Numbered from the stretch's first letter, positions 33,281-49,730 are shown. The stretch is DNA of 64,000 nucleotides from an uncultured Gemmatimonadales bacterium (GCA_963783305.1 CAWAMW010000015.1:256001-320000), one strand, 5' to 3'. The notes: generated by a model not told the origin, from the letters alone. Program-made: numbers and translations.

Positions 33281-35299
33281 TCACCCGCCGATCCGTACTT
33301 CCCGCTCTACGCGTCCGCCGCGGGTGCTGAGGACCTCCACCGTCAGGTCGAACGGGTCGGTTTCCGCCGGCACCCGGACTCGGAACGTGGCCGTGGCCGT
33401 CTCCGCGGGGTCGAGCCAGCCGAGGTCGACGGTCTTGTCGCGGAGCGCGGGCGTGGTGATCTCGGCGGCGGGGTCGTCGCCCTCGGTGAGCTCCTCCGGC
33501 AGCTCCAGCCGGACGCGGTCGGGGCGAACGATCTTGACCAGCTGCGCCTGCCGGAGCGCCGTGGGCAGCCGGCCGGCGTTCCGGATGGTCACGTTGATCT
33601 CCCAGGTGACGCTGTCGGCCGACCCGCCGGCCATACGCACCACGCCTACGTCGGCGATCTCGACCCGCGGCAGGTGCTTGGCCATCTCGAGGTTGAAGAG
33701 CGCCTGCTTCTCGACCCAGCCGCCCATCTGGTCGGCGGGGCCGTTCTGGCTGAAGAACTTGGGGTGGAACCCGCCCATCTCCACCGCGCCCAGCGTGGGG
33801 TGCTGGAACGGCTCCCACTCCCGGAACCCGCGGCCGCCGTTGGACTCATCGTCCCAGACCAGGGCGTCGAAGGAGTCCAGGATCCCGTCGCCGTTGTAGT
33901 CCTCCATGGCGCCGCCGTTCCAGAGCTCGTCGCCGTACCAGATGGCGCCGTAGTAGAAGTAGCCGAAGTCGGGGCCGTGGCCGAAGAGGGGCGCGGGCTC
34001 GGTGGGCTCGCCGGACCAGGGGCTCACGGGGTAGCGGGTCATGTACGTCTCGTACACGTCGCCGGCCCAGGGGTAGTGCGTGATGGAGAGCCCCACGCTG
34101 TCGAAGTACTCGTAGAGCGCCAGGTCCTCCGGGTACATGCGCTCCTCCGAGCCCGACGTGGACGGCGGGCGCAGGTGCATGGGCACGCGCGTGTCCATGG
34201 AGTTGGCGACGGAGACGTGCGGCCGCTGGAGCAGCCACATGACCGTGGCCATGGTCTCCGGCTCGCTCAGCGGGTACGCCCCCGCCCCGGACTGCGTGTA
34301 GCCGCGACCCGTGCGGTCCAGCCCTGTGTCGGGACGCCAGTTCTCCGGGTAGTTCCGGTGCAGGTCCAGCCCGCCGATGCCGTCCTCGTTGTAGTCCCCA
34401 TCGCCGTCATTGTCCACGCCCTCGCCCAGCACCACCCAGTCCCCGTCCTCGTCCGGCCGCGCGCGGCGCATGAGACGCCCGGACCCGTCGCGCTCGTCGA
34501 TCAGGTACTCGGCTTCCATCTCCGCGCCCGGTGAGCCCTCCGGCATGTCGGCCGGCCGGAACCGGATGTCGTAGAGGACACCGTCGCCGTCCAGGTCCTC
34601 CGGTGGGTCCTCGTCCAGGAGGCCGTCGCGGTCGCTGTCGTACGGCCGGACGGTGCTCCGGTTCGCCTGCGCCGTGTGCAGGTAGAGGTTGCTGCCGTCC
34701 GGGTTGTTCTCCGGACGGAGGTAGATCGCGTTGTGGTCGAGCAGCGCGGTGATCTCCGGGTCGTGGTCGTAGCCCTCCAGCAGGTGTCGGATCAGCCAGA
34801 GCACGCTCTCCGACGCCGTCACCTCGCCGCTGTGACGACCGCCCTCGAAGAACGCCGCCGGCTTGTCCAGGTCCGACCCCGTGGCCTCGTTCGTCAGCGT
34901 GACCTGCAGGATCGGACGACCCTCGAAGCTGCGACCCACCTCGTACAGCTCCACCAGCCCCGGGTACCGCTCGTTCCAGCGACGCAGCCACTCGTACATG
35001 ACGTCCGCCGTGTGGTAGCGGTCGAACGTCAGCGACTCCCCCGCCTCGTACTCCACGCCCTCGTGACGCACGCGCGGGAAATAGCTGATGCCGTGGCGGG
35101 TGCCGGACACCGTATACCAGGCGCTGTCGCGCTCCGACTCGGCGACGTACGTCGGGGCCACCGCCGCCATGGATGCCGGCCGGAGCGCGGAGGAGGCCGG
35201 CGCAGGGTCGCCCATGCCGGATTGGGCCGCGCAGGCCGCCGAAATCACGGGAACGGCGAGGATGCTGGCGAGGATCGGGAGACGACGGTGTCTGGACAT
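33281..35299 (-). CDS. M14 zinc carboxypeptidase
   Basis: GRSFEGR, HSGE, NPDG, DLHRNYP, SEPET; Asp-rich DxDxDG motifs. Confidence 0.9.
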   Translation of the reverse strand: MSRHRRLPILASILAVPVISAACAAQSGMGDPAPASSALRPASMAAVAPTYVAESERDSAWYTVSGTRHGISYFPRVRHEGVEYEAGESLTFDRYHTADVMYEWLRRWNERYPGLVELYEVGRSFEGRPILQVTLTNEATGSDLDKPAAFFEGGRHSGEVTASESVLWLIRHLLEGYDHDPEITALLDHNAIYLRPENNPDGSNLYLHTAQANRSTVRPYDSDRDGLLDEDPPEDLDGDGVLYDIRFRPADMPEGSPGAEMEAEYLIDERDGSGRLMRRARPDEDGDWVVLGEGVDNDGDGDYNEDGIGGLDLHRNYPENWRPDTGLDRTGRGYTQSGAGAYPLSEPETMATVMWLLQRPHVSVANSMDTRVPMHLRPPSTSGSEERMYPEDLALYEYFDSVGLSITHYPWAGDVYETYMTRYPVSPWSGEPTEPAPLFGHGPDFGYFYYGAIWYGDELWNGGAMEDYNGDGILDSFDALVWDDESNGGRGFREWEPFQHPTLGAVEMGGFHPKFFSQNGPADQMGGWVEKQALFNLEMAKHLPRVEIADVGVVRMAGGSADSVTWEINVTIRNAGRLPTALRQAQLVKIVRPDRVRLELPEELTEGDDPAAEITTPALRDKTVDLGWLDPAETATATFRVRVPAETDPFDLTVEVLSTRGGRVEREVRIGG

Positions 35300-35437
35300 G
35301 GTGTCGGTGGCTCGGGTCGCGTGGCGGGCAGGCTGTCCGGGGAGGTTGGGGCGGGCGGCGCGCCGGGGCAAGGTGCGGGCGACCGCCACCCGCTGTCCCC
35401 GTCCGCCATTCCCCTGCCCCGGCTGCCGACGTATGGA

Positions 35438-36535
35438 ATGGCCATGGCGACCATTATCCGGATACGGGAGGTCGGCGCGGAGATCGAAGTCGTTCCGGCC
35501 GTATACGACCCGGCCGTCGTCGAGCATCTCAGAACGATCCCCGGCCGGCGCTGGAGCGCACCCGGGCGCGCGTGGCTCATCCCCCGCACCGCGCAGGGGC
35601 TCGACACGATCCTCTCCCTCCCCGGCGTGAAAATCGATCTGGACCCGGCGCTCGTCCACCTCGTCCGGCGGCCGTACGATCCCGTGGCGCCTCGGGAGGA
35701 CGCCACGCTCCAGCTCCTGCGAAGGGTATCCGAGGAGCTGCGGCTGCTCCGCTACAGCCCCCGCACGCGCAAGCTCTACCTGGGCCATCTGCGGCGATTC
35801 CTCGAACGCCACCCCGCGGCCGCCCACGACCTGACAGCGGGCACGGTGCGCCGACACCTCCTGGAGCTCGAGGCCGAGAACCGCTCCACCTCCTACCTGA
35901 ACCAGGCCCTGAGCGCCATCCGGTTCGCCGCTAAGCTCCTGGGCGCCACCGTCCAGATCGAGAGCGTCGGCCGACCCAAACGCCCGCGCCACCTGCCCTC
36001 CGTCCTCTCGCCCCAGGACGTTCGCCGCATCCTCAAGGCACCCCGCCATCCCCGCCACCGCCTCGCCCTCACACTCGCGTATTCCGCCGGGCTCCGCGTG
36101 GGTGAACTCGTGCGCCTGCGCGTCGGGGACGTCGATTCCGATCGGCGGCTCATCCACGTCCACGAAGGCAAAGGCCGCAAGGATCGGTACACTCTTCTGG
36201 CCGAAACAACCGCCAGGGCACTCTACCCTTTCCTGGATGGCGCCGATGCGAACGACTATATATTCCCCGGCGCCCGCACCGGACGCCACCTCACCGTTCG
36301 CAGCATCCAGAAAGTCTTCGAGCGAGCACTGCGCGACTCCGGCGTCCAGAAGCACGCCACGATCCACACGCTGAGGCACAGCTTCGCCACGCACCTGCTT
36401 GAAAATGGCGTGAGCGTGCGGCATATTCAGGAGCTTCTCGGCCACAGCAGCCCCAAGACGACCGAGATCTACACCCACATCGCCCAGAGCGACCTGCGCC
36501 GAATCACCAACCCCCTGGACGCACCGCTCGACTGA
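35438..36535 (+). CDS. Tyrosine recombinase of the cassette array (HARP-like N-terminus, no IntI-specific insertion)
   Basis: YSPRT..Y, AGLRVGE, GKGRKDR, HTLRHSFATHLLE, LLGH, TEIYTH; adjacent to att array. Confidence 0.93.
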   Translation: MAMATIIRIREVGAEIEVVPAVYDPAVVEHLRTIPGRRWSAPGRAWLIPRTAQGLDTILSLPGVKIDLDPALVHLVRRPYDPVAPREDATLQLLRRVSEELRLLRYSPRTRKLYLGHLRRFLERHPAAAHDLTAGTVRRHLLELEAENRSTSYLNQALSAIRFAAKLLGATVQIESVGRPKRPRHLPSVLSPQDVRRILKAPRHPRHRLALTLAYSAGLRVGELVRLRVGDVDSDRRLIHVHEGKGRKDRYTLLAETTARALYPFLDGADANDYIFPGARTGRHLTVRSIQKVFERALRDSGVQKHATIHTLRHSFATHLLENGVSVRHIQELLGHSSPKTTEIYTHIAQSDLRRITNPLDAPLD

Positions 36536-36561
36536 AGGGTGGATTTATTTCGCCTCCATCA

Positions 36562-36644
36562 AACATCTTAGCGAACACCCATTCGCCAGTCTCACCCAAA
36601 GTCACTACATCATGAACTGGGTTTCGCTAATCCTTTAGTTAAGC
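36562..36644 (+). other. attI-like first site (crossover G^TT at 36638)
   Basis: GTTAAGCGCC at 36638 complements the cassette 1 end GGCGCTTAAC (37323-37332); preceded by TTAGCGAA/TTCGCTAA inverted repeat. Confidence 0.75.
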
Positions 36645-37050
36645 GCCATGCGCGCAGATGAAGTCAACTGGAGCTTGGTCAGCGCGAGCCACGGGCATGG
36701 TCGGCTGTCGGAGGTCGCTTGCAGCTGCGTCAGGCGTGCGTTGACAGGACAGAAGCGCGTGGCGGGCCTAGATGGCTTGCCAGACATGCCGGATTCGCGG
36801 CTGACGCGGCATTCGATGCCGGCGAGGTCGGCGCGGAACACGCTGGCACCTGTTCGGACTGCGGTCGCTCGAGTACCGTCGGCCGACGATGCGGACCGGG
36901 CTCGGTGAGCGTTGCGAAGTTTCGAGGACGTTGCGCCTGGAGGTCGCGGAGCGTCGGATCGCGGTCTGGACGCTCCGATGCGTGTGGCGACGCAAGTCAG
37001 CCTGAGCTCCGAACGCCGTGTAGCTGAGCTCGACACGTCGGGGGACGGAA

Positions 37051-37325
37051 GTGAATGTCTTCAGTCCGTGCGGTTCTGACGTTGAATACTGGGTCGATGC
37101 TGAGCCGCCGGTCCTCCGTGCGCTCCGCGAACGGTACACTGAGTTTGGCCTTCCGCCGTACCAGGTCGTCTTCGTAGCGGTGCGCGGGGAGATTGGGCCG
37201 GTGTTGGACTGCGGCTTCTGTACTGAGTACGACGGCAGTTTCAAGGTGGAGGAACTGGTCGAAATGGACTCGCCGGGCACCGGGGAGTGCGAGACCGAGA
37301 TCGGTGGCCACTCAGGGAGAACGGC
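37051..37325 (+). CDS. Cassette 1: hypothetical protein fragment, probably frameshifted
   Basis: FSPCGSDVEYWV...PYQVVFVAVRG; no stop before att1, start unclear. Confidence 0.4.
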
Positions 37326-37478
37326 GCTTAACAAACGGTTGGCGCCTGCGCGGCCTGCGGCCGCTCCGGAGAACCCGCCGCGGCCGTACTGGGCGCTGGT
37401 GAGGGGCGTGAAGTTTCGAAGGCGGTCGCGCGCTGGAGGTTGTCGGAGCGGCGGTTCGCCAACCTGGAAACGTTATAC
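37326..37478 (+). repeat. attC-like site 1
   Basis: GCTTAAC-AAAC-GGTTGGCG...CGCCAACC-TGGAAAC-GTTATAC. Confidence 0.9.
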
Positions 37479-37506
37479 GCCAGGTGAACGAGTATTGGGG
37501 GGTGCG

Positions 37507-37947
37507 GTGACTGAGTACGTTCTCAATGGTTGGCGCGTGGAGCACGACGCCGGTGCCACGACAGAAGCGTTGAAGCGAGCTCAGTATCGGGGCCCTGAGA
37601 GCTGTGGGTGCCTGCCCTGCCAGAACTTCGTCGCAATGCGTTCCGAAGCGTTCCCGCGCGAGTTCATGGAACTGCTCGGTGAGCTGGGAATCCCGCCGGT
37701 TTCGGAAGTCGAGGTCTATCACAACGCACGGCTTGAAAACGGGAGGCACTCCTACGGAGGGTGGTTCCACTTCGTAGGAAGGGTTGTCGAGGGGCCGGAC
37801 GGGGTCGTAGATCTGGGCAACGGTTTCCAGTTCTACTTCCGGAACGACGCCCATCTTATCTCGAAGGAGATAACCGAGCGCCCCGTGGCACAGTTGGAAT
37901 TCTACTGTGAGCTGCGCTGGGGAATCGCAGCCCAGGAGGCGCTGTAG
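37507..37947 (+). CDS. Cassette 2: hypothetical protein with CxCxxC
   Basis: SCGCLPCQNF, YGGWFHFVG; fills the cassette. Confidence 0.75.
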   Translation: MTEYVLNGWRVEHDAGATTEALKRAQYRGPESCGCLPCQNFVAMRSEAFPREFMELLGELGIPPVSEVEVYHNARLENGRHSYGGWFHFVGRVVEGPDGVVDLGNGFQFYFRNDAHLISKEITERPVAQLEFYCELRWGIAAQEAL

Positions 37948-37995
37948 ATCGGCCCTTCGGGGGAGGCGGGAGGGTCGGGAAGGGGTTCACCCGGC

Positions 37996-38145
37996 GTATA
38001 ACAAACGGTTGGCGCCTCCGCTCGCTACGCGCGCTCCGGAGAACCCGCCGCGGCCGTCTGGAAGCTGGTGAGGTGAGTGAAGGTTCGAAGGTGCTCGCGC
38101 GCTGGAGGTGTGGCGCGGCGGGTCGCCAACCTGGAAACGTTAAGC
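37996..38145 (+). repeat. attC-like site 2
   Basis: GTATAAC...GTTAAGC, same architecture. Confidence 0.9.
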
Positions 38146-38157
38146 GGCATTGGCAAC

Positions 38158-38463
38158 ATGCTCAAAGCCAACTTGAAGTTTAGTCGGGACGAACCAGAAC
38201 AGGTGGCTTTTGGAGATCACCTGCGCTGGGTCGAGTTGTCGCCCGTTGACGTTCGACCAACTAGCGCCTTGGCTAAGCCCTTTGAGGTGTTTGCTGAGTT
38301 AGTGAAGGATTCCGTCATACCGGGATTCATTCATGGCGAAGGACGGTTGGAAGAACACGCCGGCACCGATTCATGGACCGTATCGGCTCGATGCCTTGTC
38401 GGCCGACGATTTCACTTCAGTCCCTCGGACAAGGTTCGACGAAGCCCTCGAGGACTGGCTTGA
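38158..38463 (+). CDS. Cassette 3: hypothetical protein (may continue to 38666 via frameshift)
   Basis: ATG 19 nt after the crossover; overlapping ORF to 38666. Confidence 0.5.
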   Translation: MLKANLKFSRDEPEQVAFGDHLRWVELSPVDVRPTSALAKPFEVFAELVKDSVIPGFIHGEGRLEEHAGTDSWTVSARCLVGRRFHFSPSDKVRRSPRGLA

Positions 38464-38706
38464 AGGGGGAGACTGCGCTTCGACTCCGGAGCTCCGATGG
38501 AGGTGAGGGAGAAGGTCAGGTCGATGTTGAGCGCGATCCCCAAAGAAGCGCCGTGTTACGAGCTACAGAAATCGCTTGGACGGAAGCGATCACGAGTTTG
38601 CGTTTGTCCTTTGGGAGTTCAAGGAGTTCTGTTTTCCAGATGAGGCGAATGGTGTGCTCTGGCTAGTGGTTTGGGCTGCGGATTAAGGGTGTCGCGCACC
38701 AACGCC

Positions 38707-38859
38707 GCTTAACAAACGGTTGGCGCCTGCGCGGCCTGCGGCCGCTCCGGAGAACCCGCCGCGGCCGTGCTGGGAGCTGGTGAAGGTTCGTGAAGTTTCG
38801 AAGGCGGTCGCGCGCTGGAGGTATCGGCGCGGCGGGTCGCCAACCTGGAAACGTTAGCC
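38707..38859 (+). repeat. attC-like site 3
   Basis: GCTTAAC...GTTAGCC. Confidence 0.9.
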
Positions 38860-38881
38860 GTCATTCCGCGATAGGAACTGC

Positions 38882-39109
38882 ATGAGTGTTCTGCAGAGGC
38901 TTGAGCACAGGCGATGGGTGGTGTGGGTCGCCTGGCCGATTTCGGCTTTAGTTCTCCCGATCGCGATTGTTCGAACAGTTGCCGCAGTCCGAGGTTGGGG
39001 TCTCTACTACGCGTTGGACTTGGGCAAGGCACTGCAGATGGGGATCATCATGTTTGGGCCTCCGGTGTTGTTTGAAGTACTGGTCAGGAAAGGGCGAAAC
39101 AACGGCTAA
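38882..39109 (+). CDS. Cassette 4: small membrane protein
   Basis: RBS AGGA, two hydrophobic segments, TAA stop inside the TAAC core. Confidence 0.7.
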   Translation: MSVLQRLEHRRWVVWVAWPISALVLPIAIVRTVAAVRGWGLYYALDLGKALQMGIIMFGPPVLFEVLVRKGRNNG

Positions 39110-39253
39110 CAAACGGCCGGCGCCTGCGCTCCCTTCGGTCGCTCCGGAGTACCCGGCCGTCAGGCGAGCGGATGGTTGGAAAGAAGTCGAGTCGGCGGTG
39201 CCCAAGAGTTCTGGAGGGGTGGAGGCCGGGTCGCCAGCCTGGAAACGTTATGT
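39104..39253 (+). repeat. attC-like site 4 (divergent variant)
   Basis: GGCTAAC...GTTATGT; inner stem ACCCGGCC/GGCCGGGT. Confidence 0.85.
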
Positions 39254-39274
39254 GCCACACGCGGTGAGGTACGG

Positions 39275-39727
39275 ATGGGCAGCCGAACAGGGATCGGTGC
39301 GGTGACCAAGAGCAGCGTCGTAGCAAATGCCCAGAGGCTTGAAGAGGCATTCGGTTCGTGGCCCTCGTTCCACGATGCCGAGGTCCTCACCATGCGTTTG
39401 GATCGGTCCGGTGCCGTTGGGCCGACCCTGGACGCTCAGGTCTATGTGTTCGAAATGACCTCCGAGGTCGATGCGGCGGGCTTCTTCGTGTTGAAGAACC
39501 AAGTCGTCGTGAGTTTGAGGTTCTCCAATGTCGCTCTGGAGAGACTCCGCTGGTTCAACGAGCAGAACGCTCTCTCAGAACTATTCATTGATGAGATCCC
39601 TGACGAGTCCAACGAGGGCCGAACTCTAGCCGTTCGTTTTGAGTCCAGTTATGGCGTAGAGGCGAGTTTCCGCTGTGGCGCAATTGAGGTTTTGGAGGTC
39701 GAGCCGTATCGACCGGAAAAGCAGTAA
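39275..39727 (+). CDS. Cassette 5: Imm50-like immunity protein
   Basis: FGSWPSFHDAEV, FNEQNAL, SSYGVEASFRC. Confidence 0.8.
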   Translation: MGSRTGIGAVTKSSVVANAQRLEEAFGSWPSFHDAEVLTMRLDRSGAVGPTLDAQVYVFEMTSEVDAAGFFVLKNQVVVSLRFSNVALERLRWFNEQNALSELFIDEIPDESNEGRTLAVRFESSYGVEASFRCGAIEVLEVEPYRPEKQ

Positions 39728-39752
39728 GGCTGGGGCTTCTGCAGCGTGCGGC

Positions 39753-39903
39753 ACATAACAATCGGTTGGCGCCTGCGCGGCCTACGGCCGCTCCGGAGAA
39801 CCCGCCGCGGCCGGGTAGGTGCTGGTGAGGGAGTGGCAGTTTCGAAGGCGGTCGCGCGCTGGAGGTTTCGGCGCGGCGGCTCGCCAACCTGGAAACGTTA
39901 TCT
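39753..39903 (+). repeat. attC-like site 5
   Basis: ACATAAC...GTTATCT. Confidence 0.9.
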
Positions 39904-39930
39904 GCCAGTCAGCACAGTAAGAGAGATCAG

Positions 39931-40116
39931 ATGCTTTGGGACTTGCTTCAGCAGGTGCAGATCGGGCGAACGGAGCGGCACGCCGTAAATGTTGATGAGC
40001 GGCTTGCGGCTCTGGAGCGGCAGTTGGACAGAAACAGCAAGGTCTTGGTCGAGGTGATCAAATACCTTGAGAAGCGGGATGGCCGTGATCTCGACGGCGA
40101 CGGGAAGATCGGCTGA
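39931..40116 (+). CDS. Cassette 6: 61-aa coiled-coil protein with DLDGDG tail
   Basis: MLWDLLQQVQI...DGRDLDGDGKIG*; fills the cassette. Confidence 0.75.
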   Translation: MLWDLLQQVQIGRTERHAVNVDERLAALERQLDRNSKVLVEVIKYLEKRDGRDLDGDGKIG

Positions 40117-40142
40117 ACTGCCGTGGTACGGGGCTGACCAGC

Positions 40143-40295
40143 AGATAACAAAGGGTTAGCGCCTCCGCTCGGCTGCGCCGAGCTGCGGAGAACCCGCCGC
40201 GGCCGTCTGGAAGCTGGTAAGCGTTGTGAAGATTCGAAGGCGGTTGCGCGCTGGAGGTTACGGCGCGGCGGGTCGCCAACCTGGAAACGTTATAC
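40143..40295 (+). repeat. attC-like site 6
   Basis: AGATAAC...GTTATAC. Confidence 0.9.
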
Positions 40296-40349
40296 GCCAT
40301 TTGGCCACTTGATACCGTCGAGAGGTTCATGGGCTCCTCAGGCGGGAGG

Positions 40350-40862
40350 ATGCGAGGTGAGCTGGTGGCTTTGGGGGTGGCTGTCTTTTGCGCAGCCGGA
40401 TGTGAAGGTCAAGCCGCACCTGTGCCAGAGGTTTCGCGCGAACACCCGGTCATCCCGGTCGATAGCGGCATCGTCAGGATCGAGTCCGGCGGAAGCGTCT
40501 TCCGGATCAACGTTGAAATTGCCGAAACGCGGGAGCAACAGAGCACCGGGCTCATGGAGCGGCGGGCCCTCGCAGCGGACGAAGGCATGTTGTTCCTGTA
40601 CGCCGAGGAGCAAGCCGATTCGGATTCCTTCTACATGTTTCGAACGAGAATTCCACTAGCGATCGCCTTCGCCGATTCAACGGGTCAAATTGTGGCGACG
40701 CGGGAGATGGAGCCCTGCCCTCACCCGGTTGCCGATTGGTGCGAGCAGTACGCCCCTGGGAGTTCGTACCGCTCAGCCCTCGAAGTAAATGGTGGTTACT
40801 TTGACAGCAAAGGCATCGGTGTCGGGGACCGAATCGTTCTTGAAAAGAGGTTCGGGCAGTGA
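40350..40862 (+). CDS. Cassette 7: DUF192 lipoprotein
   Basis: Lipobox AAGC, VEIAET, GLMER, GMLF, ALEVNGG, GIGVGD. Confidence 0.88.
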   Translation: MRGELVALGVAVFCAAGCEGQAAPVPEVSREHPVIPVDSGIVRIESGGSVFRINVEIAETREQQSTGLMERRALAADEGMLFLYAEEQADSDSFYMFRTRIPLAIAFADSTGQIVATREMEPCPHPVADWCEQYAPGSSYRSALEVNGGYFDSKGIGVGDRIVLEKRFGQ

Positions 40863-40878
40863 AAGAGGGCCAAACGGC

Positions 40879-41029
40879 ATATAACAAACGGTTGGCGCCT
40901 CCGCTCGCTGCGCGAGCTCCGGAGAACCCGCCGCGGCCGTCTGGGAGCTGGTGAGGGGCGTGCGGTTTCGAAGGTGATCGCGCGCTGGAGGTTGTGGCGC
41001 GGCGGGTCGCCAACCTGGAAACGTTAAGC
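40879..41029 (+). repeat. attC-like site 7
   Basis: ATATAAC...GTTAAGC. Confidence 0.9.
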
Positions 41030-41041
41030 GCAATTCCGGAC

Positions 41042-41365
41042 ATGAAAACTGCTTGGGTTCTGATCGTGGGTGGCCTGCTCCTCATCGTAGGGGCTTACGC
41101 TGCCTGGAAGAACCAGATGGACTGGGGCCTTCGTGAGTGCTGTAATACAGGATCGATCGGGCCTGATCTACTCATGTTCGGAATGCCATTCCTAATCGGA
41201 GCGCTCTTGTTCTGGTCGGGTTGGGGTTGGCGGCAGTGCGTGCGTGGCGGCGAGATTCGAGGATACTGTAAGGCAGACGCCGGAACTGCGCTTAACAAAC
41301 GGTTGGCGCCTGCGCGGCCTGCGGCCGCTCCGGAGAACCCGCCGCGGCCGTCTGGGAGCTGGTGA
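41042..41365 (+). CDS. Cassette 8: small membrane protein (reads into att8)
   Basis: MKTAWVLIVGGLLLIVG..., two TM segments. Confidence 0.6.
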   Translation: MKTAWVLIVGGLLLIVGAYAAWKNQMDWGLRECCNTGSIGPDLLMFGMPFLIGALLFWSGWGWRQCVRGGEIRGYCKADAGTALNKRLAPARPAAAPENPPRPSGSW

Positions 41366-41441
41366 AGGTTCGTGAGGTTTCGAAGGCGGTCGCGCGCTGG
41401 AGGTATCGGCGCGGCGGGTCGCCAACCTGGAAACGTTAAGC
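41290..41441 (+). repeat. attC-like site 8
   Basis: GCTTAAC...GTTAAGC. Confidence 0.9.
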
Positions 41442-41491
41442 GCCATGCTCGACTGTCTGCCCGGGGTGCGATGGTCTCGGAGTGGAGGGCG

Positions 41492-41806
41492 ATGAGGAAG
41501 GTTTATTGGACTGCGTACGCCCGGGGCGATCACTACCTAGCTACTCAACAGGTGCTCGATCGGATCAGCGCGTGGGGTATTCTAGCCCAGGTGAATCGGT
41601 ATTCAGACCTGATGGTCAGTGCGGTGGTCGAGGTCGCGGAGGAACGTCTCGGACCCCTGCTTGCCGCGCTTGAAGAAATTGTTGCAGTCGAGCAGGTGGA
41701 AGATCAGGTAGTGGGCCCAGACCACCCCTGCATGGTCTACTTGAACGTGCGCATGCAGGACGGCAAAGGCGATCTGAGTATCGAGACACCGGCTGTGCCC
41801 GGCTAG
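41492..41806 (+). CDS. Cassette 9: hypothetical protein
   Basis: RBS GGAGG; MRKVYWTAY...GKGDLSIETPAVPG*. Confidence 0.75.
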   Translation: MRKVYWTAYARGDHYLATQQVLDRISAWGILAQVNRYSDLMVSAVVEVAEERLGPLLAALEEIVAVEQVEDQVVGPDHPCMVYLNVRMQDGKGDLSIETPAVPG

Positions 41807-41835
41807 GGAGCGTGAGCCCGAGGTGGTCGCACGGC

Positions 41836-41986
41836 GCTTAACAAACGGTTGGCGCCTGCGCGGCCTGCGGCCGCTCCGGAGAACCCGCCGCGGCCGTCTG
41901 GAAGCTGGTGAGGGTCGTGAAGTTTCGAAGGCGGTCGCGCGCTGGAGGTTTCGGCGCGGCGGGTCGCCAACCTGGAAACGTTAACC
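41836..41986 (+). repeat. attC-like site 9
   Basis: GCTTAAC...GTTAACC. Confidence 0.9.
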
Positions 41987-42050
41987 GCCATGTTCCGCTC
42001 GAGGCTTCTGTAGCAGATTAGGGTAGAGAATTCTACGTAGGGGGTCGCCC

Positions 42051-42275
42051 ATGTCTAATGTGCCAATCGAAGAGCTTCTGAAGCTGTCTGTTGCGGAGCG
42101 GATTCAGTTGGTGGAGGACCTGTGGGACAGCATCGCTGCGGACGCCGACGATTTCCCGCTGACTGACGCGCAAAAGGCGGAGTTGGACCGCCGGCTGGAA
42201 GAGCACGAGGCGGACCCAGGCTCCGCAATACCCTGGGCAGAGGTTCGGGAGCGGCTTTACAAGAAGTACGGGTGA
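42051..42275 (+). CDS. Cassette 10: addiction module antitoxin (TIGR02574-like)
   Basis: LSVAERIQLVEDLWDSI, ELDRR, PWAEV. Confidence 0.9.
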   Translation: MSNVPIEELLKLSVAERIQLVEDLWDSIAADADDFPLTDAQKAELDRRLEEHEADPGSAIPWAEVRERLYKKYG

Positions 42276-42568
42276 ATCGCCGGTTTGAAGTCCGACCGCA
42301 GGCGGACGCGGAGCTCGATGAGGCGGCCGCCTGGTACGCAGCTCGATCGCGGGGACTCGGAGCAGAATTCGTTCGGGTGATTGATGCAGCGTTCGCGTCG
42401 ATCGAGAGGAATCCGCGGCAGTTTCCGGTCGTGTACAAGGACTTCCGGAGGGCCGTCGTCCGGCGCTTTCCATATGCAATCCTATTTACCGTATCGGAAC
42501 CCGAGATCGTCATTTGGTCGGTCTTCCACTCCCGGCGTGATCCGAAGCGGTGGCAGAGCCGCGGTTGA
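42272..42568 (+). CDS. Cassette 10: RelE/ParE family toxin
   Basis: ADAELDEAAAWY, GLGAEF, RRFPY, VFHSRRDP; GTGA overlap with the antitoxin. Confidence 0.9.
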   Translation: MNRRFEVRPQADAELDEAAAWYAARSRGLGAEFVRVIDAAFASIERNPRQFPVVYKDFRRAVVRRFPYAILFTVSEPEIVIWSVFHSRRDPKRWQSRG

Positions 42569-42596
42569 TAGCCTCTGGAGGCTGGCAGAACACGGC

Positions 42597-42747
42597 GGTT
42601 AACAATCGGTTGGCGCCTGCGCGGCCTGCGGCCGCTCCGGAGAACCCGCCGCGGCCGTGTTGAAGCTGGTAAGGGGAGAGGTGTTTCGAAGGCGGTCGCC
42701 CGCTGGAGGTTTCGGCGCGGCGGGTCGCCAACCTGGAAACGTTATGC
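42597..42747 (+). repeat. attC-like site 10
   Basis: GGTTAAC...GTTATGC. Confidence 0.9.
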
Positions 42748-42812
42748 GCCATTGCACCGCTGGGCGTACGGCTGGTGAGGATCGTCAGGAGAGACCAAGC
42801 TCAAGGGACGTG

Positions 42813-43970
42813 ATGCCGCGAGAAAAGCAGTGCAACGTGGTTTTGGACGCGAACATCCTCGTGGCCGATGTTTGGATGGCGGGCCGGAGCTTCTCCTATC
42901 TGAGGCGTCATCGATTTCTTGAGCATCGACCGGTAGTGCCTCACGTCGCGTACTTGGAGACGCGAAACCAGCTGAAGTTGAGAGCAGAAGCGCTGATCGC
43001 TCACCGAACGGCCGAGGAAGGTGGTTCCCACGGCAACACCGTTCGGCTACGGCGGCTCTTCAATTGTGAGGATTGTCCGACTCCGGAGCATTGGGATGTC
43101 GATCGAGCTGCGTACAGAAATGGGACGATTTTGCTTCTGGGGGTCGCTGGACGAGTTCGGCGGGATGGTCCTCGACGCGCCCGACGTCGAGATCAGCGAA
43201 ATTACTAACCGTTCTATCGCCCGGAAGCGCCGCATTTTCGCGCGGTGATAAAGGTGTTTCAGGGATACCTCTCATCTGGCTCGGGACGCTCGAATTGGCT
43301 ACACCCGGATTGGTCGTGTCTCATTCGTCACTGCCAGATACCAATGACTTCTGTTGACAAGGGCGGGGTGGAACCGCATCCAGAAATAGTCAGCCGAAGT
43401 GGCGGAGCGGACTGGCGGCGAATTGGAAAATGTTGTTTCACAAGTCCTTGGACGACTTCATTGCCCACTTCGAGTTCTGATCGGTGCCGCGAGTTCGGAG
43501 GCCCTCCAGAGAGCGCTGATCTCGAAAGCACGTTCTCTGGCTTCGACGTTTGGGATTGGCTCGAATCCGAGTTCCCTCGCATTTTCGGCGGCGGAGATGA
43601 ACTTGACATGGTCCAATGGGCCGGCTTTCCGACCCCCGCCTGAAGCGCCGGTTCTCCACAGCGTAGAGCAACTCATTAGCCTGGACATCGCGCCGGGTCA
43701 AGTATCTTCATGAAGACGTGTACCGGTGTGTACTGTGATTTTTCCTTCGTTGGCAATTTCGAGGCTTCGATCGGCTGACTATGACGCGGACTCTGTAGTT
43801 CATCCGAATCAACGCACATGGAAGCGACGAAAGCGATCCTTTCTGGACTGAGGTCGGCCTTCAGGGAGTCGGCACCTGTCGCTAATAGCAATAGATCTCG
43901 ATGTGCGAACGCAAGCTGTTGAGGCCTTACTTCTACCGCAGCCGCTGGAGCACTGGAAGACCTATGAGGG
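42813..43970 (+). pseudogene. Cassette 11: PIN-domain protein, multiply frameshifted
   Basis: VVLDANIL at N-terminus; DKG..RD..IWL and NDF motifs spread over frames; end approximate. Confidence 0.6.
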
Positions 43971-44061
43971 AGCGATTCAACGCCTGGAGCAGGTGAGGAA
44001 CGAAGTGGAGGACGCGAGGACAGCATTTTCAGAGGGTTTGAATCAGGATGGGAGCAACGGC

Positions 44062-44214
44062 GCCTAACAAACGGTTGGCGCCTGCGCGGCCTGCGGCCGC
44101 TCCGGAGAACCCGCCGCGGCCGTCTGGAAGCTGGTGAGGGTTCGTGAGGTTTCGAAGGCGGTCGCGCGCTGGAGGTTATCGGCGCGGCGGGTCGCCAACC
44201 TGGAAACGTTATCT
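44062..44214 (+). repeat. attC-like site 11
   Basis: GCCTAAC...GTTATCT. Confidence 0.9.
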
Positions 44215-44234
44215 GAAACCCCTTAGGAAAGCGG

Positions 44235-44657
44235 ATGGCTGAGACTGACGGTGGGGAAATCTGGTTCCTGAATCGTGGCCTCGTCGTGCTGCGGCCGAAG
44301 CAGCCGTTCGTCGACTGGGTGCGGGAAGCGGATCCGGGACCGGGACCGCCAGTGAGTGAGGAGGTCGCGGGGAAGGCGGTGGAGGCGTTCCTGATCCCGC
44401 AGTTCGATATGACCCCGGATTCGGAAGCGTGGATCCGGGACAATTTCGATCTGATGTTCGAGATCGCTCTGGACAGCTGGTATACGGAGCCGGCGTTATG
44501 GCCGAAGAACCGGGACTGGAAGGAGTTCAACCGCTGGTTCAATGTGGAACTCATTGACGTGGCCTGGGATCTCGTGAATCAGCCACTTTCGAGCGAGCCG
44601 CCGCAGGGTCCAGCAGATCGGGCGGGTGGGAACGGGGCTTCAGATAACAACCGGTGA
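44235..44657 (+). CDS. Cassette 12: conserved-looking hypothetical protein
   Basis: NRGLVVLRPKQPFVDWV, FEIALDSW, WPKNR, FNRWF; RBS AGGA. Confidence 0.8.
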   Translation: MAETDGGEIWFLNRGLVVLRPKQPFVDWVREADPGPGPPVSEEVAGKAVEAFLIPQFDMTPDSEAWIRDNFDLMFEIALDSWYTEPALWPKNRDWKEFNRWFNVELIDVAWDLVNQPLSSEPPQGPADRAGGNGASDNNR

Positions 44658-44794
44658 GCGCCTGCGCTCCCTTCGGTCGCTTCGGAGTACCCCGCTCAAG
44701 AACATGGTGCCGATCGGGGCTGCGGGTAGTTTCGGAAGGGAGCGGCGCCTGGTGAGGTGGCGGAAGCGGGGTCGCCAACCTGGAAACGTTAAGC
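44642..44794 (+). repeat. attC-like site 12 (divergent variant)
   Basis: AGATAAC...GTTAAGC; inner stem ACCCCGCT/AGCGGGGT. Confidence 0.85.
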
Positions 44795-44849
44795 GCAATC
44801 ACTTCCGGATAGCGGGTGCCGAGAGCCGGAGTAAACTGGGGAGTCAGAT

Positions 44850-45203
44850 ATGGACTGGCGTTTGATGATGATGGCCGGAATGGCGCTGCTGATCATGATC
44901 TGGTTCGGCATGGATGCATATCTACGAATCAGGGCCCTTTCGCGTGGGGTAGCGCTGGAGGATCAGGGGGCGGCGAGTGTCTCCCATGTGTATGTGGTCG
45001 CGGCGTGTCGGATCACTGTAGTACTCGGAGTTCCGGCCTTCGTGATCGCGTACGGCGCCGGGGCGGACATCATGTGGGCTGTGGCGGGTCCTCCGGTCGT
45101 CCTCCTCACTTGCGGCTTCGTTGAGTGGGGGACAACGCGTTGGGTCTTCGATCATGATCGACAACAAGCTGGCAGTGTGGACCATAAGCGTCTTGGTGGG
45201 TGA
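44850..45203 (+). CDS. Cassette 13: membrane protein
   Basis: RBS GGGAG, three hydrophobic segments, stop just before att13. Confidence 0.75.
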   Translation: MDWRLMMMAGMALLIMIWFGMDAYLRIRALSRGVALEDQGAASVSHVYVVAACRITVVLGVPAFVIAYGAGADIMWAVAGPPVVLLTCGFVEWGTTRWVFDHDRQQAGSVDHKRLGG

Positions 45204-45207
45204 CTGC

Positions 45208-45359
45208 GCTTAACAACTGGCTGGCGCCTACGCGGCCTACGGCCGCTCCGGAGTAACCGCCGGCATCCGGCGAGGTGGTGGTGAGGGGCGGGAAGTTTCG
45301 AAAGTTCGCGAGTTGGTGAGGTCGTGGAGCGGCGGTTCGCCAGCCTTTGAACGTTATGA
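45208..45359 (+). repeat. attC-like site 13 (divergent variant)
   Basis: GCTTAAC...GTTATGA; GGCTGGCG/CGCCAGCC outer stem. Confidence 0.85.
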
Positions 45360-45390
45360 GCCATGCCCGACGGCAGGGGAGTGAGAGCAA

Positions 45391-45645
45391 ATGATGAGGC
45401 TTCGCCCTGACTTGCTGGTGGTCTTTGCCGTGGTAGCGGCAACAATCACGATGTTCGCGCTATTGCGGTTTTCGGACTGGGAGCGGACCACGGTGGTCGG
45501 GGTTTCGTCGTTAGTCATTGTGATCCCCCTGCTCATCAACAGCCAGCTTGTGCTAGGACGGAAACGCGCCCGTTCTGAGGAGCTCATGAGGGAGATCGTC
45601 AGCGAGGGACGCGAGGTCGAGCTAGAACGAAAGGATGGGCCGTGA
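45391..45645 (+). CDS. Cassette 14: small membrane protein
   Basis: Two TM segments; cassette ends GTTATGAGCCATGCCCG / CGGGCACAGCTCATAAC. Confidence 0.72.
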   Translation: MMRLRPDLLVVFAVVAATITMFALLRFSDWERTTVVGVSSLVIVIPLLINSQLVLGRKRARSEELMREIVSEGREVELERKDGP

Positions 45646-45666
45646 AAGGCGGGCACAGCTCATAAC

Positions 45667-45931
45667 GCAGCATGCGAGACAGGGGGCGGTGCCACCCAGC
45701 GAAGCGGCTCTGTTGATCGACCGCGTTCTCATGCACGACAACCTGCCCCAGCGGTATGGGACACAGTTCAAAATGGCGTAGGGACGCTGGGTGCTTCATC
45801 CGGTAGAGGATGAGGACGGACTGGAGGAACGGCGGAGATCAATGGGCCTTCCATCCATGGACGAGTACATGCGCATGATGGAGGAAGCGTACGGTGCGCC
45901 CGTTGTAAGGCAGCATAGCGACGGGAAATAG
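45667..45931 (+). pseudogene. DUF6624-like C-terminal fragment
   Basis: Manual translation ALLIDRVLMHDNLPQRYGTQF..*..PVEDEDGLEERRRSMGLPSMDEY; no start, internal TAG at 45779. Confidence 0.7.
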
Positions 45932-46030
45932 AGAGGGAAACGGTTGAGCCCCTGACCGTGGGCGGCATATTTTGGCGGACGACACGTGATGCAGCAGGTC
46001 CACGGGCCTCGGACCGCAAGGAGATATCGA

Positions 46031-46540
46031 ATGGGCATCGAACGTTACCGCCTCGGGTCCTTCATACGCGCGGGCGCCGTCGGCTTGCTTGTCGTGGGAC
46101 TGGTTGGATGCGGGAAAGGCCAGGGAGACCCGACACAGCCGGAGGTCCATGCGCCCGCTGAGGAGCTCGAGGGGACATGGAGCTGGGTACGGTCCGTCGA
46201 TGTGAACACCCTGGATCTCCACACTCCAGGCGCCGACGATTTCCAGGCAGAGCTTGTCTTCGTCGCCGACTCCGAGCGGGAGGGGAGTTACGTGTACCGG
46301 CGTACGGGAGCCCCGGAGGTAAACGGTCGCTTCGGTATCGGCTCGGAGGATTCCCCCGGGAATGACTTCATCGCCATCGACCACCCCATCGATTTCCTGG
46401 AGAGCCACGCGTGGGTTGTGGCAGGAACGGACAGTCTGTGGCTGGGTGGCGTGTTCGAGAATGGCTACAACTCCCTGTACGCGCGGGTTTCTGCTTCGCC
46501 ATCCCCAGATTCCTCGTTGCCGGCTCAGAAGGGATTGTAA
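46031..46540 (+). CDS. Hypothetical lipoprotein
   Basis: Lipobox LVGC, LEGTWSW, RBS GGAG. Confidence 0.75.
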   Translation: MGIERYRLGSFIRAGAVGLLVVGLVGCGKGQGDPTQPEVHAPAEELEGTWSWVRSVDVNTLDLHTPGADDFQAELVFVADSEREGSYVYRRTGAPEVNGRFGIGSEDSPGNDFIAIDHPIDFLESHAWVVAGTDSLWLGGVFENGYNSLYARVSASPSPDSSLPAQKGL

Positions 46541-46602
46541 GAGCGAGAAGTATTGGCGCAACGCTGGAACGTCAAGCGCAATTAACGTGAGGAGGCGCGG
46601 TC

Positions 46603-47190
46603 ATGGATAGGAGTCGCTGGATTGGAATCGCTGCGCTGGTGGCCGCCGTCAGTTGTGGCCCGACCTCCGAGGAAGAGCCGATCCGGGCAGAACTACCTGA
46701 GAGCGAGTCCACCGCTGAAGCTCGTGTTGCACCTGTTCAGACGGCGACCGACGCCGGCTGGGAGGTCGACTTCAGCAGCTATGGGCCCGTCCCGCTGGGC
46801 ATCGCATTCATGGAGGCGAATCAGGCGGCCGGAGGCGTGCTCGAGTCTCCAGGGTCAATGGAGGGTTGCGAGACCGTCCATGTGTCGGAGGGGCGGGAGA
46901 GGGTTGGGCTGATGGTCGTTGACGGGCGGATCACCCGTGTCGATGTCTACAACCCTGAGATCACCACGGCACAGGGCGCCAGGATCGGAGACAGCGAGGA
47001 GCAGATCAGAGCCCTATACCCCGAGAGCCTCGAGGTCCGACCTCACAAGTACACGGATGGAAGCTATCTGATCGTCACGCCTCCGGGCGCAGATCGGTTT
47101 CGGCTGGTCTTTGAAACGGCACGAGGGACGGTCCAGACGTTCAGAGCGGGTGTGCTGCCCGAAGTGGAATGGGTAGAAGGGTGCGCCTAG
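46603..47190 (+). CDS. Hypothetical lipoprotein
   Basis: Lipobox AVSC, GARIGDS, PHKY, VEGCA*. Confidence 0.8.
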   Translation: MDRSRWIGIAALVAAVSCGPTSEEEPIRAELPESESTAEARVAPVQTATDAGWEVDFSSYGPVPLGIAFMEANQAAGGVLESPGSMEGCETVHVSEGRERVGLMVVDGRITRVDVYNPEITTAQGARIGDSEEQIRALYPESLEVRPHKYTDGSYLIVTPPGADRFRLVFETARGTVQTFRAGVLPEVEWVEGCA

Positions 47191-47297
47191 ACGGCTGTTC
47201 CGGTGGTGAGGTCGCTGTAGGTCCGAAGGTGCTGGAGCCCCGAACCAGCGTTCGGCGGCGCACGGACCTCACTGGTAGTTACGGAAAGGCTTCGCTG

Positions 47298-47530
47298 ATG
47301 GAGACGCGAGACCCGGTGGTTGAGTATCTGGACACGTCGGTTCTATGGTATGGCGAAGGCGATGGACGTGACTCGGATCATCGTGGATGGAGCCCGAGCG
47401 TGTGCCCAGACGCGCTATGAGCTCGAGCCGCCCGGTGGCCGCAGTTTCGAAAGCCACGTCGCCGAAGTGTTGGAGGTGAGCGGCGGCAGGATCACTGCGC
47501 CTGGCATCTACTTCGACAGCGCACCCCTTC
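47298..47530 (+). pseudogene. SnoaL/NTF2-like remnant
   Basis: IIVDGARAC...VAEVLEVSGGRI...IYFDSAP; start in another frame. Confidence 0.5.
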
Positions 47531-47692
47531 GCTCCCTTCGGTTGTTGTGGAGTACCCGGCCGGCAGGCGGATCGGTGGCTGGGAGTGTGCGCATGCCCGG
47601 AAATCGGACCGTTCGAAAGGTGGCCGCTCGAGATGATCGATCCTACATTCTCACCATCGATAGGCCGATTTGAACCAGCGAGCGGAAGGCAC

Positions 47693-48247
47693 ATGAGCGC
47701 TTCACCCGCGGACCGGCTGAACACGATCCCATTCGCCATAATGGCGGGTGGGTGGCTCGGGCCCCTCCTCATGTTCTGGCTCTACGTCTGGGGGCCGCTT
47801 CGGCCATATTCGTATCCTCCCGGCCGCCTTCTTCCGGGCCCTTCTTTTGCGCTTCTCGTGGTCGGTTGCGCTGCCGTGGGGTGGGCGCTGCCGCGCCGGT
47901 ACTTCCGGATTCACCGGTTCGAACGCACCGGCCGGCTGTACGAAAGGCTCGGCGTCCGCGCGTTCCGCCACGTGGTCCCCGATGGCGACCTCATCAACCG
48001 ATGGGTGCGGCGTTCCATTCCCGGCTACCGGGTGGTCCGGGGCAGGCGTGCGGTCGCGGCTTTCGTGGCCAGGACCGAGCGAAGCGAGCGCGGCCATGCG
48101 GTTCTGCTGATGCTGGGTGTGGTGTCGGCGGCGTACGCGTGGACCCTGGACTGGCGTGTATGGGCGCTGTACCTCACCGCCGGCAACCTCCTGGTCAATC
48201 TCTACCCGATCCTGCTGCAGCGGTACACGCGGAGCCGCCTGCATTGA
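47693..48247 (+). CDS. CrtO-like (glycosyl-4,4'-diaponeurosporenoate acyltransferase family) membrane protein
   Basis: FERTGRLYERLGVR, TERSERGH, NLYPILLQRYTRSRL. Confidence 0.75.
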   Translation: MSASPADRLNTIPFAIMAGGWLGPLLMFWLYVWGPLRPYSYPPGRLLPGPSFALLVVGCAAVGWALPRRYFRIHRFERTGRLYERLGVRAFRHVVPDGDLINRWVRRSIPGYRVVRGRRAVAAFVARTERSERGHAVLLMLGVVSAAYAWTLDWRVWALYLTAGNLLVNLYPILLQRYTRSRLH

Positions 48248-48287
48248 GACATGGCCGTGACAAACCTCGGACGAAACGAGAAACCGG

Positions 48288-48803
48288 ATGATTAGAACAG
48301 GACTGCTTGGTATTCTGCTGGTCCTGTCGGTCGGAGCATGTGCGCACGGCTCCAGCGAGGGGGCGGAGCCAGCGGGCCTGCCGATGTGCGCAGAAGACGT
48401 GGTGGGCGTCCGACCTGAGATGCTTCAAGATCGCAGCGCCTCCGAGATCAAGGAAACGATAGCGTCCCTGGGCTGGATCGCGATCGAGAGCGGCTCCGAG
48501 GTGGTTGCTGTTGATCGCCCCCCCCGATTGGCCAACACGGGGAAAGTGCAACGTGCGCTCGTCAGCCACTTTCCGACTGATCTTCGGGATCGACGGATTG
48601 GCGGGAGCGTCACGTTCTTCGTCTGGCTCGACCCTGAGGGAAACCTGGTCCGCAAGGCGATCGCCAAGGGGTCCCGGTATCCGGCGTTCGACCGGGCGGC
48701 TGCGAATGTCGTCTCCGTCATGGAGTTCAGCCCGGCCGCCACCGAGACGTGTCGCGTGGCCTTCTGGAATGAGCTGGTCGTGAATTTCGAAGCGCACCGG
48801 TGA
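48288..48803 (+). CDS. TonB C-terminal domain lipoprotein
   Basis: Lipobox VGAC, GSVTFFVWLDPEG, GSRYPAFDRAA, FSPA. Confidence 0.75.
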   Translation: MIRTGLLGILLVLSVGACAHGSSEGAEPAGLPMCAEDVVGVRPEMLQDRSASEIKETIASLGWIAIESGSEVVAVDRPPRLANTGKVQRALVSHFPTDLRDRRIGGSVTFFVWLDPEGNLVRKAIAKGSRYPAFDRAAANVVSVMEFSPAATETCRVAFWNELVVNFEAHR

Positions 48804-48855
48804 TGCTGGGGAGGTTCCGTAGGGGGAGTGAGGCCATGGGCTGGAGGTTGAGGCC

Positions 48856-49658: not shown

Positions 49659-49730
49659 GCGGCCGCTGGACCGCATCGTGCGGGCGATCGCGGCCCCACG
49701 ACGTGGATTCACCCCTGCGAGAGGCCCCCG

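Follow-up and report, generated by a model that had tools for sequence, protein, structure and literature searches.

The cassette array

The stretch of DNA considered here, referred to as the window, comprises 64,000 nucleotides (nt) from an uncultured Gemmatimonadales bacterium (GCA_963783305.1, CAWAMW010000015.1:256001-320000). A row of short genes on the + strand occupies 36638-45666, with 13 copies of a 136-139 nt repeat between them. A cassette consists of a gene and the repeat downstream of it, and cassettes are joined at or just before GTTA. The row is headed by an attI-like site and a gene for a tyrosine recombinase that lacks the insertion specific to integron integrases (IntI). The two ends of each cassette are complementary to each other over a stem of about 15-18 base pairs private to that cassette, and this stem is interrupted at one fixed place, position 11, where A at the 5' end stands opposite C at the 3' end (A/C). 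The same mismatch recurs in other arrays of the insertion-less type.

The array had been described in a sequence-only reading, whose coordinates and three quoted examples of cassette ends are all present in the sequence. Its count of 14 cassettes is reduced to 13, because the span 36638-37332 is a chimera: its 3' half belongs to a cassette that has another 5' end on contig C16 of the same assembly, and a decayed repeat lies inside it. The chimeric origin also accounts for the only end match of 12 base pairs (bp), which came from this span. The features, in window coordinates, are listed below.

35438-36535, +: tyrosine recombinase gene on the cassettes' strand, without the IntI-specific insertion (Pfam, TIGR02249, alignment gap)
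35438-35650, +: HARP-like N-terminal domain of the recombinase, a lead below the curated cut-off (Pfam HARP, profile, fold match)
36545-36648, +: attI-like insertion site, the first GTT lying at 36638; also present at the head of the C16 array
36638-36839, +: probable true first cassette, decayed and gene-less, A/C at 11 by eye (sequence; decayed repeat behind)
36840-36962, +: decayed repeat copy within the first span of the earlier description (nhmmer, expectation value (E) 5.8e-6)
37051-37332, +: 3' part of a cassette with an intact copy on C16 (same gene and same 3' end at L058 7809-8229)
37333-37471, +: attC-like inner repeat 1 of 13
37472-38002, +: cassette; ends pair 1-18, A/C at 11
38003-38138, +: inner repeat 2
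38139-38713, +: cassette; ends pair 1-15, A/C at 11, 16 and 17
38714-38852, +: inner repeat 3
38853-39110, +: cassette; ends pair 1-17, A/C-type at 10, 11 and 14
39111-39246, +: inner repeat 4 (variant)
39247-39759, +: cassette with Imm50 gene; ends pair 1-16, A/C at 11
39760-39896, +: inner repeat 5
39897-40149, +: cassette; ends pair 1-17, A/C-type at 10 and 11
40150-40288, +: inner repeat 6
40289-40885, +: cassette with DUF192 gene; ends pair 1-18, A/C at 7 and 11
40886-41022, +: inner repeat 7
41023-41296, +: cassette; ends pair 1-17, A/C at 11
41297-41434, +: inner repeat 8
41435-41842, +: cassette; ends pair 1-14, A/C at 11
41843-41979, +: inner repeat 9
41980-42603, +: cassette with addiction-module antitoxin and ParE-family gene; ends pair 1-19; recurs in genome G032
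42604-42740, +: inner repeat 10
42741-44068, +: long cassette with overlapping short open reading frames (ORFs); ends pair 1-15, mismatch at 5, A/C at 11
44069-44207, +: inner repeat 11
44208-44648, +: cassette with a 140-residue ORF; ends pair 1-15; also in G032, followed there by the same repeat variant
44649-44787, +: inner repeat 12 (variant)
44788-45214, +: cassette; ends pair 1-15, A/C at 11
45215-45352, +: inner repeat 13 (variant)
45353-45666, +: last cassette; ends pair 1-17, A/C-type at 10 and 11; no family repeat behind
46559-47589, +: decayed continuation of the array; cassette start near 46571, repeat remnants near 47204 and at 47510-47589

The inner repeat folds with a 5-nt spacer, an inner stem of 7-9 bp, a branched apex and an 8-nt spacer, so that the pairing of R and L boxes around unpaired spacers that characterizes attC sites is present. 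Its inner stem is a plain duplex that runs into a branched junction, with nothing bulged out at the fourth position; in other repeat types (Cytophagales, genome G014) there are bulges further out. The 8-nt right spacer was dismissed as a special feature, since canonical sites of the same phylum have one too. Rfam gave no match at E up to 1 within 35000-50000, and a classical attC behind the last cassette (45666) was ruled out, as that stretch does not fold (z +1.3).

Complementary ends and the mismatch at position 11

When each of the 14 spans of the window is measured from its own GTT to its own AAC, position 11 is A opposite C in all 14, exactly as the sequence-only reading had stated. Both bases are invariant in their own right and the mismatch is therefore present in every non-cognate pairing as well, which makes it a fixed property of all ends and not an instance of cassette-specific covariation. 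Pairs are likewise invariant at positions 1-4 and 8, while the remaining positions differ between cassettes and yet pair within each. A11 as part of a start codon was ruled out, ATG standing at 11-13 in only four of the 14 spans.

The claim that a 5' end complements the 3' end of its own cassette is strongly upheld when the 3' ends are permuted 100,000 times. Pairs are formed at positions 5-7 in 40 of 42 cases (19.1 expected), at positions 8-10 in 39 of 42 (29.8 expected) and positions 12-16 in 61 of 70, against an expectation of 26.5 and a permutation maximum of 50. The excess persists weakly at positions 17-18 (14/28, 8.6 expected, p 0.006) and is lost at 19-25 (23/98 with 24.4 expected, the level of chance). 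The cassette-specific stem is thus real and ends near position 17, pairing reaching 16-18. Position 10 is unpaired in three of the 14 spans.

It had also been said that nearly all other mismatches are of the C/A kind. Over positions 1-16 of the 14 spans this does not hold, there being 14 further mismatches, of which six are A/C-type, one is G/T-type and seven are neither. Inside the stems it does: at positions 1-14 of the 13 true cassettes, five of the six internal mismatches are A/C-type and none is G/T-type.

The rule in other arrays of the insertion-less type

The check proposed with the original description, to look for the position-11 rule in homologous arrays, bears it out. Sixty spans outside the window were scored by eye, with both ends legible and exact duplicates counted once. 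They come from the same assembly (C16, 7; C12, 2; C14, 1), G032 (7, in 12 kb), G019 (4), metagenome locus L119 (3), G014 (8, in 12 of 20 kb), G017 (9, in 12 of 20 kb, two of them chimeric), a Cytophagales genome (8), Fulvitalea NZ_AP025317.1 (8) and Persicobacter CP012852.1 (3). Loci L014, L043-L045, L047, L051, L052 and L054-L057 lie outside the span counts, and of 11 loci returned by a related-locus search, with one useful array, only L001 (Cytophagales) was taken in. Position 11 is A/C in register in 52 of the 60 spans and A/C after a one-base slip in three; it is A/A in four, and in one a C/T at 11 is accompanied by A/C at 12, the mismatch being shifted. The 5' base is A in 58 of the 60, and by eye none of them has a Watson-Crick pair at position 11.

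Pattern searches anchored in the repeats agree with these counts. Across 157 loci, some of them overlapping, the 3'-end base before family repeats is C in 27 matches and any other base in none; it is also C in nine of nine metagenome loci. The 5'-end base after family repeats is A in nine metagenome loci and not A in two, which hold one identical cassette. An 18-base metagenome scan gave 53 loci, from which 39 apparent chance matches without GTTA were set aside.

Inner repeats are very different between arrays that keep the rule. The G017 array (L049 1700-9230) contains at least five unrelated inner-repeat types and the same end design in all its cassettes. Outer stems of the insertion-less type are mostly 15-22 bp long. 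In G014, where position 10 is unpaired in five of eight spans, paralogous cassettes differ at positions 6, 7 and 16; all three changes are compensated, and positions 10-11 stay unpaired.

Several further observations concern these arrays. Within 12 kb of the G014 array (L046 6200-18199) one cassette is present four times together with a diverged paralogue, two of the copies standing in tandem right after attI. G014 has two further similar recombinases, one beside a transposase-like gene (L048) and one known from its ORF only (L053), neither of which heads an array as far as was looked. In the Cytophagales array (L001 13370-20470) about four to five of seven repeat types seem to have A/C near 10-11 of the inner arm as well, frequently together with a single bulge near 6-7; this hints that both arms are marked symmetrically there. 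No inner-arm A/C near 10-11 was seen in the repeats of the window or of G014. In Persicobacter CP012852.1 (L101 10696-13120 and 14746-17200), elements comprising a recombinase and a transposase-like gene lie, reversed, precisely at the 3' ends of cassettes, as if they targeted the folded site.

The attI-like site, polarity and mobility

The attI-like site before the first GTT recurs, over some 95 bases, at the head of an integrase-less array on C16 (genome G000, L058 2290-9500), which has its own attI copy, at least seven cassettes and insertion sequences inside. Elsewhere in the assembly the window's repeat is found on contigs C12 (two matches), C14 (two) and C16 (nine). GTT is preceded by A at attI and by C at the repeats, and the sequence already differs by cassette at position 5, which places the crossover within or just before GTTA. 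The crossover near G^TT put forward earlier fits this interval, although the exact point is not pinned.

Movement of cassettes as units, part of the original proposal, is borne out by the relative G032, where the cassettes at 41980 and 44208 recur at other ranks and behind other upstream neighbours with the same downstream repeat variant. A third cassette, common to G032 and G017, keeps its downstream repeat family among other neighbours. The repeat thus moves with the upstream gene in three of four comparisons. Public contigs compared with the array matched it in scattered fragments and showed no junction of a circle or deletion that could be used.

The unit that follows each attI copy (36638-36660; L058 3443-3465) is short and gene-less, and its first 17 bases are nearly identical in the two; it may be the right arm of attI instead of a true cassette. 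A short inverted repeat lies between the recombinase stop and attI (window 36572-36585; L042 near 17960-17945, minus strand), and we take it to resemble a LexA box of the Gram-positive type. The G032 version is perfect, that of the window has one mismatch, and the C16 copy is similar. Divergent from the recombinase lies a Peptidase_M14 gene (33281-35300, minus strand), whose longest ORF call, running antisense through the whole recombinase gene, is probably over-extended.

The recombinase

The product of 35438-36535, an open frame, contains Phage_integrase (PF00589, E 2.2e-42) and Phage_int_SAM_4 domains by Pfam, and its catalytic residues align with those of canonical IntI. It scores 201.5 bits against the integron-integrase model TIGR02249, below the cut-off of 265. 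Positions 179-234 of that model are bridged by 15 residues, and in an alignment with three canonical integrases of the same phylum the window, G032 and Cytophagales proteins share gaps of 31 and 10 columns; the IntI-specific insertion of about 41 residues (the I2 region) is absent. This insertion is named as defining integron integrases (PMC4792948, 10.1101/2022.02.06.479319). The array cannot be treated as an ordinary integron, as had been done, since its recombinase fails the IntI test. The best family match is NF040815, the XerA-like "site-specific tyrosine recombinase/integron integrase", at 213.8 bits with a cut-off of 220, and the top fold match of the catalytic part is the integron integrase VchIntIA (2a3v; E 1.8e-14, template modelling score 0.70), with XerA structures next. 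No second recombinase of the insertion-less type was found in the assembly, which has two other Xer-like genes elsewhere.

The first 70 residues may be HARP-like, a lead drawn from sequence profiles and a structural model. Four of six aligned N-termini match HARP (PF07443) at E up to 10, the best at 1.3e-4; the window's own gives no match, and the two HARP scores shown fall below the curated cut-off. The best match of the N-terminal profile in the PDB is the HARP domain of SMARCAL1 (4o66, E 0.005). The structure, predicted with confidence (predicted local distance difference test score 88.5), is closest to the N-terminus of UvsW (Z 6.2, root-mean-square deviation 2.3, 57 aligned residues), other matches being lower. 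Searched against proteins, the N-terminal 75 residues matched nothing beyond the query itself, and for this domain the Atlas gave unnamed clusters only, under 0.9, and Foldseek nothing at E 0.001 or better. The domain occurs in many insertion-less members, and the Cytophagales member, which has none, still obeys the position-11 rule. HARP domains are said to mediate annealing activity (PMC9243424).

Canonical integrons of the same phylum as a control

Canonical integrases score above the cut-off in 80 of 201 genomes of the phylum (78 of 199 without G038 and G225), and one of them has its best plasmid match in Gemmatirosa, from which its host probably belongs to the Gemmatimonadota. Of 12 canonical loci, six carry arrays, each on the strand of the integrase, and the other six showed none (L090, upstream side only; L092, L093 and L095-L097, by repeat search). 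Seven canonical arrays (L088, L089, L091, L094, L098, L099, L104) lie downstream of the integrase on the same strand. Right-hand spacers in the canonical arrays of the phylum are long (7-8 nt where counted), and several of the arrays have gene-less or reversed cassettes; the sites have 5- and 8-nt spacers and a bulged base at the fourth position of the inner stem. The control comprised 41 spans: G106, 6; G233, 5; G211, 3; G127, 4; G073, 4; G105, 5; Gemmatirosa NZ_CP007129.1, 9 (5 kb); and class 1 cassettes, 5.

Canonical cassette ends also pair, over about 7-14 bp. Long complementary ends are therefore general, and the observation that the stem runs well past the canonical 7-bp R box, correct in itself, is not the special feature it was taken for. 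The fixed mismatch behaves differently. A/C at position 11 occurs in none of the 41 canonical spans, and where the 5' base at 11 is A (10 spans) its partner is T in nine. With 52 of 60 outside spans A/C in register and none of 41 canonical ones, the fixed mismatch at 11 marks the insertion-less type.

Choice of strand and a proposed mechanism

In silico circularization and folding of both strands, another check suggested at the outset, favoured circle-type junctions and was mixed on strand preference. Circle-type junctions are more stable than array junctions at 13 of 13 sites on both strands, with a mean gain, summed by hand, of 9.4 kcal/mol for the bottom strand and 7.1 for the top. The natural tandem duplicate of G014, which is equivalent to a circle junction, folds at -61.2 kcal/mol on the bottom strand and -56.8 on the top, a 4.4 kcal/mol advantage that, with the polarity of the mismatches, is in keeping with the bottom-strand folding originally proposed; the window sites lend it less. 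Folding energy does not settle the strand, and bottom-strand folding is plausible.

We favour, at somewhat better than even confidence, an integron-like gene-capture system in which the bottom strand of a cassette circle folds and a thymine kept out of Watson-Crick pairing at position 11 selects the strand. Excision would bring the two cassette ends together across the repeat to give a circle, whose bottom strand would fold into a hairpin with the cassette's end stem as its outer arm. The recombinase would bind an arm of the size used by Xer, reading the positions common to all cassettes (1-4, 8 and 11); Xer arms are 11 nt long (PMC8371274), and an 11-nt arm counted from the first T spans positions 2-12. 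At position 11 the bottom-strand hairpin would present the thymine of the double-stranded attI arm, opposite G or sometimes T, and the top-strand hairpin would present C (or A) in an unpaired A/C. Since the two hairpins would present a Watson-Crick pair in the same way, it is the mismatch that makes the strands unequal. It would thereby pick the strand to be cut, and hence the orientation of insertion, the canonical counterpart being the extrahelical bases together with the I2 region. The cassette-private pairs would form only in the circle, favouring insertion over excision.

The comparison with canonical integrons gives this scheme its setting. There, the first extrahelical base directs strand choice, and top-strand recombination rose 50.7-fold when the extrahelical bases were deleted (PMC2727003). 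The I2 region houses these bases, which XerCD does not need in order to act on a folded single strand (PMC4792948). The system described here has neither the extrahelical base nor the insertion that holds it, and yet all its cassettes face one way. A G:T wobble as the recognition mark itself, as the sequence-only reading had it, is not supported in that form; the A/A cases (T/T on the bottom strand; four of 60 outside spans) speak against a need for the wobble, and an unpaired or wobbled thymine fits them better.

Several observations weigh against the scheme. Whole circular window sites favour the bottom strand in only seven of 13 cases, with five for the top and one tie; the inner repeat alone folds better on the top strand in nine of 13. 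That strand is rich in G, the reverse of what is reported for mobile-integron sites, for which 1.24 G:T pairs per bottom strand and 0.39 per top are also given (PMC5027507). Within this one genome, the two copies of the gene at 37051 are followed by different repeats. Besides the four A/A spans, one cassette has its mismatch at 12 and T at position 11 of the 3' end. The span counts were made by eye and are not independent, because several cassettes are common to different genomes. The link between recombinase and sites rests on adjacency (in seven genomes or records) and on the sole copy in the assembly. Finally, A/C at position 12, ending the stem, is found in six of nine Gemmatirosa spans (L104 9220-13590, where these stems stop at 11 bp) and in one of G127, and with these seven canonical cases the A/C tendency is not wholly exclusive to the insertion-less type.

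Other explanations account for parts of the pattern. Positions 10-11 might be a flex point or safety break in an outer stem that folds without any choice of strand by mismatch, serving to bend the stem or to keep a 17-bp inverted repeat imperfect. The unpaired position 10 (3/14 in the window, 5/8 in G014), the toleration of A/A at 11 and the cassette that breaks at 12 would all suit such a role; it would, however, admit any mismatch of either polarity, whereas the 5' end has A there in all 14 window spans and in 58 of the 60 outside, with a partner that is mostly C, and we consider it unlikely. Alternatively, the complementary ends could be a scar of cassette genesis, left when one end was copied from its opposite number and serving no further purpose; A and C at 11 would then be separate fixed bases, read in double-stranded DNA. 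That both bases are invariant on their own agrees with this, as does the pairing of canonical ends over some 7-14 bp even though exchanging R-box sequences left selectivity unchanged (PMC5027507). Copying would not, however, leave a single fixed mismatch, and the three compensated changes out of three between the G014 paralogues and the longer stems of the insertion-less type also count against a scar, which seems decidedly improbable.

The remaining two alternatives keep the folding and change the substrate. If the top strand were folded and the A/C mismatch itself recognized, the better top-strand folding of the G-rich inner repeats (9/13) and of five of 13 circular sites would follow; the attI-like sites at the left end and the movement of the repeat with the upstream gene (3/4) are instead the canonical bottom-strand polarity, and five of six internal mismatches are G:T on the bottom strand and none on the top, leaving this reading little chance. 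Pairing of the ends in place within the array would loop out the gene, form an inner arm from halves of two neighbouring repeats and make the stem an aid to excision. It would use the cognate stem and present the same cut position, and the window's repeats are alike enough to cross-pair. In the variant repeats (39111, 45215; G032) the left inner box nevertheless fits its own right box better than that of the repeat upstream, and G017 mixes unrelated repeat types whose halves cannot cross-pair, so that this is the least probable of the explanations considered.

Relation to known systems

The array resembles canonical integrons in its single-gene cassettes joined at GTT with a hairpin-forming site behind each gene, in an attI beside a tyrosine recombinase whose top fold match is 2a3v, in its paired R and L boxes and in the movement of a gene with its downstream site; with the canonical sites of its own phylum it further shares 5- and 8-nt spacers, the strand of the integrase and end pairing beyond 7 bp. 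It differs in lacking the IntI insertion and the bulge at the fourth position of the inner stem, in an outer stem of 15-22 bp with the fixed mismatch at 11, and in the HARP-like N-terminal domain of many members. The I2 insertion and the extrahelical bases in the L arm, the first of them in the L'' box, are both defining features, and as both are absent the system is not classed as a canonical integron, integron-like as it is in its working.

XerCD acting on phage CTX is a second relative, with an I2-less recombinase, a folded single strand, no extrahelical bases and a mimic of a double-stranded site (PMC4792948). CTX, however, borrows the host's XerCD and inserts at dif, whereas here a dedicated recombinase stands beside its own attI-like site and a cassette array. 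XerA is close by family and fold, and the array-heading relative in Fulvitalea is annotated xerA; XerA, though, resolves chromosome dimers at dif, and no cassette arrays are described for it in the available portions of the literature searched. Xer/dif has a single dif with two 11-nt arms and no cassette array, unlike the recombinase here, which heads 13 repeats. The first 70 residues of the recombinase are similar in sequence or fold to SMARCAL1 HARP, the N-terminal domain of UvsW and the damage-recognition region of XPB, domains known in helicases; here the domain would be fused to a recombinase, and it is absent from the Cytophagales member. The literature searched, which did not extend to older subscription papers on cassette ends, contained no description of the system or of the mismatch. 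What is new here is the same-phylum contrast with canonical arrays, together with the A/A exceptions.

In integron theory, it is through the I2 insertion and the extrahelical bases that the integrase singles out one folded strand and gives inserted genes their correct orientation. Where both are missing and arrays on one strand nonetheless stay ordered, strand choice must be solved differently, and the mismatch at position 11 is a one-base candidate for that solution. Its signature, a 5' A at 11 with a partner that is never T, split the two kinds of array examined here. The finding bears on the origin of integrases from Xer enzymes. It is tentatively suggested, at a little under even confidence, that such arrays represent a further kind of integron, itself widespread, whose outer arm encodes the choice of strand in one fixed mismatch that an I2-less recombinase reads. 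This would be a missing intermediate between Xer and IntI, a dedicated cassette system working on folded single strands without extrahelical bases or I2. In some lineages a HARP-like domain that binds forks would assist it, and tools that look for the insertion would overlook it.

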